A stretch of 64,000 nucleotides of DNA, from assembly GCA_947630965.1 (NCBI GenBank), contig CANRJO010000004.1, forward strand, positions 3,143 through 67,142, read 5' to 3'. The notes under the pieces are model-generated. The model was not told where the DNA came from. It worked only from the letters and a program-made list of their open reading frames with translations, and searched no databases. A program made the position numbers and the translations under genes. Source of the stretch: an uncultured Alphaproteobacteria bacterium (GTDB taxonomy: Bacteria; Pseudomonadota; Alphaproteobacteria; RF32; CAG-239). How positions within the stretch are numbered: position 1 is the first letter of the stretch; each line of letters begins with the position of its first letter. Shown here in pieces: positions 32,504 to 55,413 of this stretch.

Positions 32504-32794
32504 ATGAGAGATATGATCTTAAAAGCCGTTGCCCAGCCGCCCAAAATTTTTTGGGGGCCCGTGTTGCCTGTTGCGTTAAACGCTGGTTTACAGTTTCCGT
32601 TTATGTTTATGATGATTGGTATCGGCGATGTCAACCCATTGTTTTTTGTGGTCAGCATTATTTTAGTCCATACAGGCATTGTCCTTTATGGCACGCGAGA
32701 ACCGCATCTTTCGGCGATGATTCAGGCGTTTGGTCAAACAAACGTAGTCTCGCATAACCTTTATTCAGAGAGGGGGAATAAATTTGAGCCCTGA
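32504..32794 (+). CDS. virB3: Type IV secretion system protein VirB3
   Basis: ~97 aa, two hydrophobic segments; RBS AAAGGAA before ATG 32504; overlaps virB4. Confidence 0.65.
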   Translation: MRDMILKAVAQPPKIFWGPVLPVALNAGLQFPFMFMMIGIGDVNPLFFVVSIILVHTGIVLYGTREPHLSAMIQAFGQTNVVSHNLYSERGNKFEP

Positions 32795-35219
32795 TTTTGA
32801 TTTTTTCAGCTTATTTGCACAAGGTTTAAGCAATGTTGAAGTCATGGTTGCCGTCATCGGTATCATTTCCGCGGCGGCATTTGGCGTCTTGTTAGCCACG
32901 CGTTTTGGTAACTGGATTTTACCGCAACCGCGTGAATCTCGCGTGTCAGACTTTTTGCCTTTTGCGCGTTTAATGGAAGATGGTGTCACCATTCGTTGCA
33001 GCAATGGCTCATACGCGCGTGTTTTCCGCATCAACGGCATAGACCTTTCTTCCGCAACTGAAGAAAAAACTTATTCGATGATGGAAGCGCGCAAAGCCTG
33101 GATAGATAATATGTCCGAGCTCCAGATTGTTTGCCGCGTGATAACACTGCGTGATCTGACAGCATTGGAAAAAGCAGAAGGCGAGTTTAACAACGAAATT
33201 TTGGAAAAAGTTTCCGAAATTTGGTATGAAAATATGACTCGCATTTATACCAACACACATTATATTGTTATTTCTGTGGCGGATCGGAAAGACGCCATCA
33301 AAGACCTTAACTATGCCTCACAAAGTCTTGTTGCCACATTAACCGAGTATGGCGTTGCTCAAATGTACGAGGCGCCCGACAGTCCCGCAACCGATAGCCC
33401 GCTTTATCTTTTTAGCCGGCTTGTGAGCCCCATTTCTAAGCCTGAGCCCAAAATCCGAAACGCCCAAAATGCCGAACTCAATGAAATGTTAACAGCTGAT
33501 CACATACATTTCACCCGCGAACAAGGCATCATTCGGTTTTTCTCGGGCGATAAAGAAAAGTATGAAATTGCCATGGGCATTCGCACCACAGGTGATTATA
33601 TGGATGAGAATATGATTATGTCGCTTTTATCCATAGATTCAGAGCTTGTCTTGTTGCATAACATTCGCCCCATATTCAAGCCTCAAGCACGAATGATGCT
33701 TATTCAGCAACAGCGTATGGCTGTTTTAACAAGTTTTTCGCCGGAAGTTGTCAATCAATATTCCCAAGCGTTAGGAACCATTGAAGATTCAGACGCTGAT
33801 TATCAAGCTTTAACAGAATATGCCATGACGGTTTTAATCCGCGGTGAAACAAAAGAGGAGCTTGACTTTGGTGAATCTGAAGTTCAGCGTATTTGTCGTT
33901 CATTTGGTGTCACGCCAGTGCGTGAAGGTTGGGTGGCACAAGCCACATTTTTCAGCCAATTCCCAACTTATGACACTTACCCCCGGACATACCGCTATTT
34001 ATCGCGTGTTGTAGCCATGGCGGTGTGCTTTGATAAGCCTGCGGAAGGTTTTGGAAAGTCTGACTGGGGGCCGGGCGCCATTACGGTTTTCCGGACCATG
34101 TCGGGTTCGGCTTATCGGTTCCAATTCCACGTTTCTGCTGAAGAATCAGCTGTGGCGCACTGTTGCATTATTGGTCCAACCGGACAAGGTAAAACAACAT
34201 TGCTCACATTCTTGGCAGGGCAGGCAATGCGCCATTCTGATTTAAAAGTGTTCTTCTTTGACCGTCACCGCGGTGCTGAGATTTTTACCCGTGCCATTGG
34301 CGGTGCATACGTTGGTTTTGACGGCGATAATAAAAATGTTTCCTTAAATCCGTTTGATGCCGATAACACACCGAATAATCGCGCCTTTTTGCGCCGTTGG
34401 ATGAAGGCCATTACCCTGGCAGATGATGCGCTTTCCGAGCGTGAAATTGCTCGCGCGGTCACCACCGCGTTTGATTACTTGCGTCCTGAAGAGCGCGTGA
34501 TGAAAAACCTTTACAAAAGCTGTTTCTCGCCAACAGGAACGATGCGCCGCGAACTTTACAGGTGGATAAACCCTGATCAATATGGCAACATCTTTAACGC
34601 CGATACAGATAGTTTGGACTTAAAAGCCAAGCGCTTTATGGCATTTGACTTCACGCACATTTTTGAAGATGAAACCTTGGCGCCGGCGGTCATCAGCTAC
34701 ATCATGCACCGCATTCAATCTGAAACCGGCGAAACAGGTGTGCCGTCTCTGATTATGATTGATGAAACGGCGCCGATGCTCAAACACCCAATGTTTAGAG
34801 ATTACTTCATTATTGGTTTGCAGGAAGGTCGTAAAAAGCGCCAAGCATATTTGTGCGCGTTTCAACAGCCAAACATTATTGATAAACTTGGCGTTGGTGA
34901 GGTCATTCGTGGTCAATGCCAAACAATCATTTTCTTTAGAAACCCGCAAGCCATGCCTGAGGATTACGCCACATGGAACTTAACACAAGCGGAGTTGGAT
35001 TTTGTATTTGGTAAAACTTACCGCGAATTTCCGTATGCCATTTTGCTTTCGCGTCCGGCAACGGGTGAATCGGTTATTTTAGACGTTAATTTAGGCGCCT
35101 TAGGACCATACCTCAAGCTTTACAACTCAGGCCGGAAGAACGTTTTGCTTGTTGAACAACTCATTAAAGAATACGGCGAAGAAAACTTTGTTACAAAATA
35201 TTTAAATATTGGCGAGTAG
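32784..35219 (+). CDS. virB4: Type IV secretion system ATPase VirB4 (TTG start)
   Basis: 811 aa; Walker A CIIGPTGQGKTT, Walker B LIMIDETAP; RBS AGGGGGAA upstream. Confidence 0.9.
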   Translation: MSPDFDFFSLFAQGLSNVEVMVAVIGIISAAAFGVLLATRFGNWILPQPRESRVSDFLPFARLMEDGVTIRCSNGSYARVFRINGIDLSSATEEKTYSMMEARKAWIDNMSELQIVCRVITLRDLTALEKAEGEFNNEILEKVSEIWYENMTRIYTNTHYIVISVADRKDAIKDLNYASQSLVATLTEYGVAQMYEAPDSPATDSPLYLFSRLVSPISKPEPKIRNAQNAELNEMLTADHIHFTREQGIIRFFSGDKEKYEIAMGIRTTGDYMDENMIMSLLSIDSELVLLHNIRPIFKPQARMMLIQQQRMAVLTSFSPEVVNQYSQALGTIEDSDADYQALTEYAMTVLIRGETKEELDFGESEVQRICRSFGVTPVREGWVAQATFFSQFPTYDTYPRTYRYLSRVVAMAVCFDKPAEGFGKSDWGPGAITVFRTMSGSAYRFQFHVSAEESAVAHCCIIGPTGQGKTTLLTFLAGQAMRHSDLKVFFFDRHRGAEIFTRAIGGAYVGFDGDNKNVSLNPFDADNTPNNRAFLRRWMKAITLADDALSEREIARAVTTAFDYLRPEERVMKNLYKSCFSPTGTMRRELYRWINPDQYGNIFNADTDSLDLKAKRFMAFDFTHIFEDETLAPAVISYIMHRIQSETGETGVPSLIMIDETAPMLKHPMFRDYFIIGLQEGRKKRQAYLCAFQQPNIIDKLGVGEVIRGQCQTIIFFRNPQAMPEDYATWNLTQAELDFVFGKTYREFPYAILLSRPATGESVILDVNLGALGPYLKLYNSGRKNVLLVEQLIKEYGEENFVTKYLNIGE

Positions 35220-35295
35220 GTCAAATTTTATTTTGTTGTTAACTATTTTTATGTTAAAATACTTTTTATGAATGGACTGATAGACGGAGGTCGGT

Positions 35296-54432: not shown

Positions 54433-54441
54433 GAGAACACC

Positions 54442-55413
54442 ATGAGCTCATTTACAGTTTTAGAATCAGTCTTACGCCCCTTAGCATATTGGTATAACCA
54501 AGAAAACATTGAAGAGGTGGCAATTAACCGCTCGGGGCAGATATGGCTTCGGTTGCGTGGCAAGCGGGCTTATCCTTGGATAATGTATAAAGATGAAAAG
54601 CTCACCAAGGATTACCTCACGGACTTATTATATATTGTGGCAAACACTTACGAGCTTCCGTTTGATCCCATTTCAGGCTCGCCGTTAGTATACGCCACAA
54701 TCCCTGGCGATCACCGTTTTTCAGCGATTGCCGGGCGCAACGTGATGTATGATGAAGACGACCTCACCGGTGGCGTGGCTTTAACCATTCGTGTGCACGC
54801 GGACGATGTTGCTTTTGGACTTGGCGATTACGGCTTAGTGCAAGGTCAGGGCTTGCATAAAATCAACCCTTTAAAAAACATCAAAGACCCCGATGACCCG
54901 TACGAGCGCTTGCTTTTGAGCATTAAGCGCGGCGATCATATTTTAGTCAGTGGCGCCACCTCAACGGGCAAAACCACATTTTTGAACAATCTTTTAAAAA
55001 TTTTAGACCTTCACAAGCGCATAGTGACCATTGAAGATACGCGCGAGCTGATCGTGCCGCACCCAAACCGCGTGCATTTGGTGCTTTCGCGTACGGAGCA
55101 GACCAACCAAATGGATTATGCCAAAATCATTGACTTGGTGGTGCGTTTCACCCCGGATGCCATCATCGGCGGCGAAATTTCCACCAACAACGCGGGAGCC
55201 ATATGGGAGCTAATGGGTTCCGGCCACGATAACTGCTTAGCAACCATCCATGCCGAGAGTTCTGAGGCGGCATATCAAGCCTTTGTGGACCGTATTTTGC
55301 ACACATATCCCACCATTGACCGTGAAAAAACCATTGAGGAAATGCACCACAAACTCCGTGTTGTACAAATCAATCGTGACGGCAACTTGCGTGCCATCAC
55401 GGAAGTCACATAA
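54442..55413 (+). CDS. virB11: Type IV secretion system ATPase VirB11
   Basis: 323 aa; Walker A SGATSTGKTT, IEDTRELI, GGEIS..., HAESS His box. Confidence 0.85.
   Translation: MSSFTVLESVLRPLAYWYNQENIEEVAINRSGQIWLRLRGKRAYPWIMYKDEKLTKDYLTDLLYIVANTYELPFDPISGSPLVYATIPGDHRFSAIAGRNVMYDEDDLTGGVALTIRVHADDVAFGLGDYGLVQGQGLHKINPLKNIKDPDDPYERLLLSIKRGDHILVSGATSTGKTTFLNNLLKILDLHKRIVTIEDTRELIVPHPNRVHLVLSRTEQTNQMDYAKIIDLVVRFTPDAIIGGEISTNNAGAIWELMGSGHDNCLATIHAESSEAAYQAFVDRILHTYPTIDREKTIEEMHHKLRVVQINRDGNLRAITEVT

Follow-up and report, generated by a model that had tools for sequence, protein, structure and literature searches.

The 64,000-nucleotide (nt) stretch of DNA analysed here, which we call the window in its entirety (contig CANRJO010000004.1 of an uncultured alphaproteobacterium), carries at 32504-55413 on the + strand an operon that is, by its predicted gene content, a genuine P-type (VirB-like) type IV secretion system (T4SS) and an unusual variant of that type. 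Its most unusual feature, which had escaped the preliminary description of this DNA, is a giant VirB10 made largely of beta-flower repeats and split into two genes. We favour, with a confidence a little above even, the view that the operon encodes an intact, chromosomal and non-conjugative P-type T4SS for cell contact, with Sec-delivered cargo and this split giant VirB10 at its core. The operon is single and tightly packed, and all 13 of its open reading frames (ORFs) are intact, in the order VirB3, VirB4, p515, p232, p416, p1337, VirB8a, VirB7, VirB8b, VirB9, VirB10 N-half, VirB10 C-half and VirB11. Of the components that define the P type, VirB4, the VirB7/VirB9/VirB10 core complex and VirB3, VirB8 and VirB11 are present. 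The preliminary description had already recognised a VirB-type T4SS with a virB8-virB7-virB8' triad, which is borne out by the PF04335 matches of both VirB8 proteins and by the lipobox lipoprotein between them. The gene order that it listed is also correct, but it left out the 1262-amino-acid (aa) gene at 46419-50207, between virB9 and virB10, and the gene that it listed as virB10 has a product larger than normal, of 1437 aa with beta-flower repeats and a TrbI domain.

The individual assignments, all on the + strand, are of unequal directness. The first gene (32504-32794) encodes a predicted two-helix membrane hairpin of 96 aa (hydrophobic residues 28-73) from an ATG at 32504, within a reading frame open from 32480 (104 aa); its orthologues are 96 aa long. 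It had no direct family match in the Pfam/NCBIfam scan and was assigned to VirB3 transitively, through an end-to-end alignment (E 1e-6) to the Microvirga plasmid protein WP_203447091, which clears Pfam VirB3 (24.4 bits for a cut-off of 23.9). The VirB4 ATPase (32784-35219, 811 aa) has an N-terminal transmembrane (TM) helix and matches PF03135 (3.8e-16) and TIGR00929 (1.6e-113), the latter with a score under the NCBIfam equivalog cut-off that marks it as a divergent member; its homologues bear PF27097 (VirB4_TrbE_N). The two bitopic VirB8 proteins, which are 33% identical to each other and flank VirB7, consist of a more divergent copy, VirB8a (42819-43574, 251 aa, PF04335 3.3e-17), and a conserved copy, VirB8b (43929-44669, 246 aa, PF04335 1.3e-19). 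VirB8b has Bartonella VirB8 as its best PDB match (3e-9) and is 32% identical to Microvirga's single VirB8. The VirB7-type lipoprotein between them (43726-43914, 62 aa) is marked by a lipobox, LLSAC, and by the motif K(L/K)SPCAC. The VirB7-slot lipoproteins of related plasmids match it at 35-43% identity (E ~1e-11) and have K-x-SPCAC in common with it, and its counterparts in the more distant loci L028-L030 are 46-53% identical to it. VirB9 (44686-46422, 578 aa) consists of a signal peptide, a CagX/VirB9 domain (PF03524 4e-11) and a SPOR-like C-terminal domain; the SPOR match is weak (7e-4, slightly under the cut-off) and recurs in 9 of 14 orthologues, and this C-terminal part is 37-54% identical in L028-L030. 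The VirB11 ATPase (54442-55413, 323 aa, TIGR02788 3.3e-42) closes the conserved operon. Since VirB4, both VirB8 proteins, VirB9, VirB10 and VirB11 all score under the NCBIfam equivalog cut-offs, the system is a divergent one.

VirB10 is encoded in two overlapping genes. The N-half (46419-50207, 1262 aa) begins with a cytoplasmic tail (SERYVRKTNR), a TM helix (15-43) and an Ig-like domain, and continues with about 1000 aa of hairpins of the form "xDxNGNVIG", which match the 5-fold beta-flower family PF21785 in 14 stretches (1.3e-93). The C-half (50119-54432, 1437 aa), whose start codon is uncertain, overlaps the N-half gene by 89 nt. It opens with an apparent Sec-type signal peptide, the usual membrane anchor not being there, and then carries about 1000 aa of beta-flower repeats (PF21785 4e-53), a Gly/Pro linker, the TrbI domain (residues 1116-1312, PF03743 8e-33) and a Ser/Gly/Pro tail ending in LF. 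The best solved relative of the TrbI domain is ComB10 (2bhv, 6e-21), followed by CagY (5e-7), and its NCBIfam match is NF038092 (5e-33).

A search with VirB10 C-half residues 1000-1437 against 1.84 billion cluster representatives returned 2776 matches, the nearest of which form two classes. The first comprises 16 single-chain representatives, 15 of 1930-2406 aa and one of 1498 aa, whose N-terminal region, made up of an "S-x-E-Q-Y-x-K-K-S-N-R" tail, a TM helix and an Ig-like domain, is homologous to N-half residues 1-205 (E 5e-23 to 2e-6); beta-flower repeats and a terminal TrbI domain 34-50% identical to that of the window follow. The second comprises 12 representatives of 1407-1888 aa which begin, as the C-half of the window does, with a signal peptide and "EITAIDFNGD". 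As the single giant relatives match the 1262-aa protein at their N-terminus and the 1437-aa protein at their C-terminus, the two genes of the window together correspond to one giant VirB10 that has been split. All 10 sister species have the two genes side by side, with a stop codon between them and an overlap that varies, which shows the split to be genuine and conserved. On this sequence comparison we conclude that the predicted ancestral protein is one giant VirB10, bigger than CagY (1927 aa); the window version totals some 2.7 thousand aa in its two pieces and holds about 20 tandem beta-flower barrels. The length of the N-half ranges among species from 1206 to 1371 aa, which suggests gain and loss of repeats by recombination. 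A direct repeat of 142 nt (87% identity) lies within the N-half gene at 47057-47198 and 47216-47357 of the window, with many other repeats of the hairpin unit at 60-75% identity. Durairaj et al. (2023, PMC10584680) described the beta-flower as a small, shallow hairpin barrel that occurs in stand-alone proteins, some of them lipoproteins. The repeats in the two VirB10 halves match this group (PF21784/PF21785) strongly but differ from its described members in that some 20 barrels stand in tandem, fused to a T4SS channel protein.

The same arrangement recurs in many other genomes. VirB4 homologues 81-93% identical to that of the window were found on many (hundreds of) gut-metagenome contigs, the named ones being recorded as "MAG: Alphaproteobacteria bacterium" (MAG, metagenome-assembled genome). 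A scan with one genome per species yielded 10 loci from MAGs of uncultured gut Alphaproteobacteria, and the synteny from p515 to VirB11 is perfect in all of them. Identity to the window in these 10 loci is 92-94% for VirB11, 89-94% for VirB4, 84-92% for VirB7, 75-79% for VirB8b, 64-69% for VirB8a, 60-67% for VirB9 (80% in one locus, over a partial alignment), 52-60% for the VirB10 halves and 27-42% for the four secreted proteins, which change two to three times faster than the machine parts. In four more distant loci (L028-L031, GC content 41-53%), the kit surrounds a single-chain giant VirB10 and consists of four to six signal-peptide proteins followed by VirB8-VirB7-VirB8'-VirB9-VirB10-VirB11. 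There VirB9 keeps its conserved C-terminal tail, and conservation again favours VirB8b (38-43% identical to that of the window) over the divergent VirB8a, so that the VirB8 duplication predates these lineages. Judging from these comparisons, the giant VirB10, the VirB8 duplication and the kit of genes mark a P-type lineage in uncultured gut Alphaproteobacteria and related bacteria, and VirB10 is split in the clade to which the window belongs. We did not find this lineage described in the literature on T4SS, VirB8 and VirB10 of RF32/Alphaproteobacteria and gut MAGs.

The conservation of the locus bears on the idea that what is left here is an integrated conjugative element in decay, its relaxase, coupling protein, pilin and VirB6 already lost. 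The nearest annotated relatives are indeed conjugative plasmid systems, and the window is without the virB2 module that its neighbours have (see below). Against this, none of the 13 ORFs is broken, the ATPases are 89-94% identical across the 10 species in perfect synteny, and the giant VirB10 and the VirB8 duplication have been kept in distant members. We therefore regard decay as very unlikely. The favoured reading of an intact, non-conjugative system is also supported by the surroundings of the operon, which is flanked by housekeeping genes. No tRNA gene was found in the window, and its sole integrase-family gene is Xer-like and lies 24 kb away among housekeeping genes (8086-8988). The 5 kb past the 3' end of the window hold housekeeping genes, for BOF and PPDK. 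After virB11 come convergent yihA/yidC in five sister loci, a pilin-like gene in three others, and housekeeping genes in L028, L030 and L031.

Between VirB4 and VirB8a, in the slot of VirB5 and VirB6, lie four genes (35296-42809) whose products each have a signal peptide ending in AxA, no internal hydrophobic segment, an acidic composition and a predicted all-helical structure. By these predicted features the four proteins are Sec-exported and not membrane channels, in agreement with the preliminary description, which had noted that they are without internal TM helices and are not polytopic VirB6 paralogues. The first, p515 (35296-36843, cleavage SFA/QWPTLD), occupies the VirB5 slot and has a helical N-domain, a disordered acidic and Pro-rich linker and a conserved, Cys-containing C-domain. 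Its orthologues are 28-42% identical, it has a weak match to DUF4141, and its mature N-terminus, WPTxD, aligns with the IPVxD of plasmid VirB5 as a weak, short motif (hhalign E 7e-4, probability 26%). The second, p232 (36840-37538, cleavage ARA/DIDII), is all-helical, 27-33% identical across the 10 species and without a family or PDB match in Pfam, NCBIfam or PDB. Compared by hhalign with the plasmid VirB5-slot proteins, p232 and p515 showed nothing past a likeness of the signal peptide and first helix. The third, p416 (37535-38785, cleavage TFA/QAV), is a coiled-coil protein 28-36% identical across species, for which the PDB gave coiled-coil noise only and hhalign no relation to the 420-450-aa plasmid proteins of the VirB6 slot. 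The last, p1337 (38796-42809, cleavage ASA/FFPLPP), combines a central coiled coil with a globular, Cys-rich C-terminal region; its alignment has conserved Cys and aromatic columns, it is 29-33% identical across species and no PDB relative was found. Among the four proteins themselves, the similarity detected by hhalign is confined to the signal peptide and first helix. A word-indexed homologue search gave 20 matches for p515 and 8 for p232, too few for a deep alignment, and the AlphaFold2 (AF2) models were unusable (pLDDT 40.7 from 18 sequences for p515 and 39.6 from 8 sequences for p232).

The secreted block is plastic. The counterpart of p515 in L022 (12513-14936) is 807 aa long with faint GAF matches, and in L018 (12513-21156) the counterpart of p1337 is split into proteins of 264 and 1264 aa, which brings the genes between virB4 and virB8 to five. 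The count of signal-peptide proteins ranges from four to six among relatives. As fast-evolving secreted proteins, they are candidate surface antigens or adhesins.

Several parts of a canonical T4SS were not found in the window, as the preliminary description had noted for VirB2, VirB6, VirD4 and the relaxase. For VirB2, a hidden Markov model (HMM) built from six clade-specific pilins was run on all six frames of the 64 kb, with a best E of 0.2; these frames include the stretch 5' of virB3 where the preliminary description had proposed to look for a small VirB2-like peptide. However, four of the six sister loci with readable upstream sequence (L018, L021, L023 and L033), including the closest relative (L033, VirB4 93% identical), carry a VirB2 module. 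It consists of three genes in 2.3-2.5 kb directly 5' of virB3, after the pilus operon or housekeeping genes, and encodes two pilins called at 116-156 aa and one protein of 378-479 aa that starts with a VirB2 domain. Of the five module proteins scanned, four reach the Pfam TrbC cut-off. Lack of VirB2 is therefore not a property of the system. The long VirB2 (L018 8185-9624; L021 8450-9586; L023 8404-9702; L033 6791-7927) joins a TrbC/VirB2 two-helix pilin domain to a Gly/Ala/Ser-rich, Cys-containing extension of 250-350 aa, beside the two short pilins, and we know of no described VirB2 with such a long extension. In the window, the corresponding place is the promoter or intergenic region 32092-32503, between the divergent type IVb pilus operon and virB3, and the three-gene module is not there. 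L022 is likewise without it, and the two loci have in common a distinct upstream sequence of about 210 bp (window 32348-32560, 78-81% identical). A 475-aa ORF at 18731-20158 was considered as a relocated long VirB2 and ruled out, with no similarity by tblastn or HMM. The preliminary description had also proposed that the adjacent type IVb pilus might supply the pilus function. Three sister loci (L018, L021 and L023) have both this pilus and the VirB2 genes, so in general it does not stand in for VirB2.

No ORF with at least three TM segments was found at 32-60 kb of the window, and a polytopic VirB6 was not found in about 20 related loci, among them the 10 species loci and L028-L030, nor in the three closest plasmid operons. 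No family match to a type IV coupling protein (T4CP) or to a relaxase was obtained for any window ORF scanned, and VirD4 is never 3' of virB11 in the 12 loci with visible downstream sequence. In L030, a VirD4/TraG-type coupling protein (PF02534) is encoded 8.6 kb downstream of virB11 on the other strand (25810-27221, -), with aroQ, accB and accC between; it may serve this T4SS or another element. No virB3/B4 adjoins the virB8-B11 block of L028 or L031. In view of these scattered loci and of the L030 coupling protein, absence from 64 kb says little about the whole genome.

These observations leave room for the same machine to be a complete effector translocator with scattered genes, as in rvh, with VirD4, the VirB2 pilins and a VirB6 equivalent at other loci, delivering cytoplasmic effectors into a eukaryotic or bacterial target. 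Besides the separate virB8-B11 blocks and the L030 coupling protein, the VirB2 module beside virB3 in most readable relatives, the closest included, speaks for it, as an intact operon without a pilin would be odd. Yet the usual VirB6 slot contains no VirB6 in any of the 20 or so loci of the lineage, the three plasmid relatives that do have a relaxase and a T4CP are also without one, no VirD4 follows virB11, and no effector-like gene is conserved beside the operon. We consider such a translocator the main rival and a serious one, though clearly less probable than the favoured contact system. Residues 9-42 of VirB4 (window 32784-32910) form the predicted N-terminal TM helix, which is also conserved among relatives on plasmids and in Paracaedimonas and is covered by PF27097, a recent addition to Pfam; the helix could have a role in building the inner-membrane platform without VirB6.

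Annotated relatives were sought by tblastn against 72,556 plasmids. The best matches by VirB4 were Microvirga pMVF16-3 (37.5%), Sphingosinicella p1 (36%) and an Erythrobacter aureus plasmid (35.5%), compared with about 25% for ordinary VirB4. Their gene order is MobA/MobL, a DnaB-like gene (in two of the three), VirB2, VirB3, VirB4, VirB5, a helical protein, VirB7, a single VirB8, VirB9, VirB10, VirB11 and VirD4. The likeness extends to VirB4 (35-38% identical), VirB11 (41%), VirB9 (34-38%), the TrbI domain of VirB10 (30-34%) and VirB8 (29-32%), and also to the SPCAC VirB7 lipoprotein, the TM-anchored VirB4 and the helical, non-TM protein in the VirB6 slot. The window differs in having two VirB8 genes where the plasmids have one, and a VirB10 of 2.7 thousand aa in two pieces where theirs measures 530-590 aa. 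It is also without DNA-transfer parts; the plasmids encode a MobA/MobL relaxase, VirB2, VirD4 and a VirB5 that Pfam recognises. This comparison suggests that the window system is descended from a conjugative system of this kind and is now chromosomal; it would have lost the DNA-processing parts and gained the VirB8 duplication, the extra secreted proteins and the beta-flower expansion. The plasmid VirB6 slot (L015 18469-20709; L017 16502-18647; L014 22480-25347) holds an Ala-rich helical non-TM protein of 420-450 aa, with no polytopic VirB6 in the T4SS operon. The Microvirga plasmid encodes an extra 228-aa protein with 3 TM segments, and a VirB6 of the normal six-TM type is encoded on a Paracaedimonas plasmid, a more distant relative.

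The preliminary description had also drawn a link to the rvh system of Rickettsiales, of which only the gene order and the VirB8 duplication stand. Membership of the rvh family would account for the virB8-virB7-virB8 order, for the non-channel genes between virB4 and virB8, and for the scattered loci in some relatives, and the chromosomal location is also alike. The hallmarks of rvh are the duplication of RvhB4, RvhB8 and RvhB9, a multicopy RvhB6 and the absence of a VirB5 analogue (PMC11077975), and of these five the VirB8 duplication alone is clearly found here. VirB4 and VirB9 are single in every locus seen, there are no VirB6 paralogues and no VirD4 after virB11, and the window has a VirB5-like candidate, p515, by its weak N-terminal motif. 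Both VirB8 copies have Bartonella VirB8 as their best solved relatives, and RvhB8 chains are not among the PDB matches of either. With conjugative plasmids as its closest relatives, the system is most improbably a member of the rvh family, the least credible of the alternatives weighed here.

Likeness to the Cag system of Helicobacter pylori lies in the chromosomal location, in a giant repeat-bearing VirB10 homologue, CagY being the second-best solved match of the TrbI domain, and in the extra secreted helical proteins; Cag is a host-interaction system with its own secreted helical proteins, CagL, CagI and CagH. It differs in that the repeats of the window are beta-flower hairpins and not CagY repeats, and Cag has CagC (VirB2), CagW (VirB6) and Cag-beta (VirD4). 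Searches of the window proteins against Pfam, NCBIfam and PDB sequences gave nothing that matches Cag3, CagM, CagT or CagL/I/H. The VirD4-less systems Trw of Bartonella and Ptl of Bordetella, which the window resembles in that no coupling protein was found, both serve as working models: Trw is an adhesin whose variable surface parts have multiplied, and Ptl exports a substrate delivered to the periplasm by Sec. Unlike the window, both have retained VirB2 and VirB6, and a giant VirB10 is found in neither.

A DNA uptake or release system without a coupling protein, of the ComB type (Helicobacter) or the gonococcal genetic island (GGI) type, would be consistent with ComB10 as the best solved relative of the TrbI domain and with the VirD4 and relaxase not found in the window. 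However, the ComB set consists of ComB2, 3, 4 and 6-10 without VirB11, and the window shows the reverse, VirB11 being present and homologues of VirB2 and VirB6 not found. The closest relatives of VirB4, VirB9 and VirB11 are moreover alphaproteobacterial plasmid systems and not ComB, and fast-evolving secreted proteins are unexpected for DNA uptake. We thus regard this alternative as unlikely.

Returning to the favoured reading, we infer a working, non-conjugative envelope machine, which is probably used for cell contact. VirB3, VirB4, the two VirB8 proteins and the VirB10 N-half would form an inner-membrane platform driven by VirB4 and VirB11. The core in the outer membrane would be made up of VirB7, VirB9 and the VirB10 C-half, and the SPOR-like tail of VirB9 would anchor it to peptidoglycan. 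The beta-flower arrays may constitute a large scaffold, either periplasmic or at the surface, and the variable Sec-delivered proteins would be the cargo or building blocks assembled or displayed at the surface, to which two short VirB2 pilins and one long one would be added in sister species. The purpose would then be contact with a host or another cell, akin to the VirD4-less Trw and Ptl, and almost certainly not DNA transfer, given that neither pilin nor VirB6, coupling protein or relaxase is encoded nearby. Several points weigh against this reading. Canonical T4SSs need VirB2 and VirB6, and it is plausible that the missing parts are encoded elsewhere, in which case the system could be an ordinary translocator of cytoplasmic effectors. 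The four secreted proteins have neither fold nor family, with Pfam/NCBIfam noise and empty PDB sequence and profile searches; the VirB5-like label of p515 rests on a short N-terminal motif, and the signal-peptide reading of the VirB10 C-half hinges on the uncertain start codon. The function itself is read from sequence.

One might speculate further, and more tentatively than on the scattered translocator, that this is a distinct T4SS class without polytopic VirB6 or coupling protein. Its platform would consist only of VirB3, the TM-anchored VirB4, two VirB8 proteins and the giant VirB10 anchor, and its 20 or so barrels would be a new periplasmic or extracellular conduit or sheath, displaying Sec-delivered, diversifying proteins to gut host or protist cells.

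The divergent operon at 21663-32091 (-) encodes a type IVb (R64/Tcp-like) pilus, with a PilS/bundlin pilin, T2SSF, T2SSE, a PilP-like protein, PAP_PilO, a secretin and TcpQ. It adjoins the T4SS in the window, L018, L021 and L023, but not in L022 or L033, and its possible cooperation with the T4SS in cell contact may be envisaged. Between addA and the pilus operon, 17340-21654 contains a low-GC stretch (0.34 at 18-20 kb), a 143-aa polytopic ORF (17870-18301, -) and the 475-aa ORF mentioned above, both without a family, and a PilT-like ATPase (20692-21654); no prepilin peptidase was identified. After virB11, 55535-59962 (+) encodes a classical autotransporter of 1475 aa, with a signal peptide, about 640 aa of Cys-rich EGF/teneurin-like repeats and a 'GIYA' repeat passenger. 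Its beta-domain (PF03797 2e-21) came up only in a scan restricted to the last 326 aa and was missed in that of the whole protein. This gene was ruled out as a substitute for VirB6 or VirD4, as it encodes an autotransporter and is not at this position in sister species. Just past it, 60241-61389 (-) encodes a Fic_N, Fic and winged-helix protein with no evident tie to the operon; Fic proteins can be T4SS effectors, but toxin-like or regulatory ones often have the domain arrangement seen here as well.

VirB10 is the sole T4SS protein that crosses both membranes, and it passes ATP-driven signals to the outer-membrane gate; to our knowledge it forms this energy-sensing bridge in all studied systems. 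Its separation into inner- and outer-membrane halves would, if true, uncouple the bridge. A VirB10 four times the normal size, built on a fold recognised only in 2023 and cut in two in one clade, tests which canonical architecture is required. In the same way, the lack of VirB6 in about 20 loci, and in three plasmids with a relaxase and a T4CP, challenges the view of VirB6 as universal. The system may be a widespread, unstudied route by which uncultured gut Alphaproteobacteria make contact with host or microbial cells.

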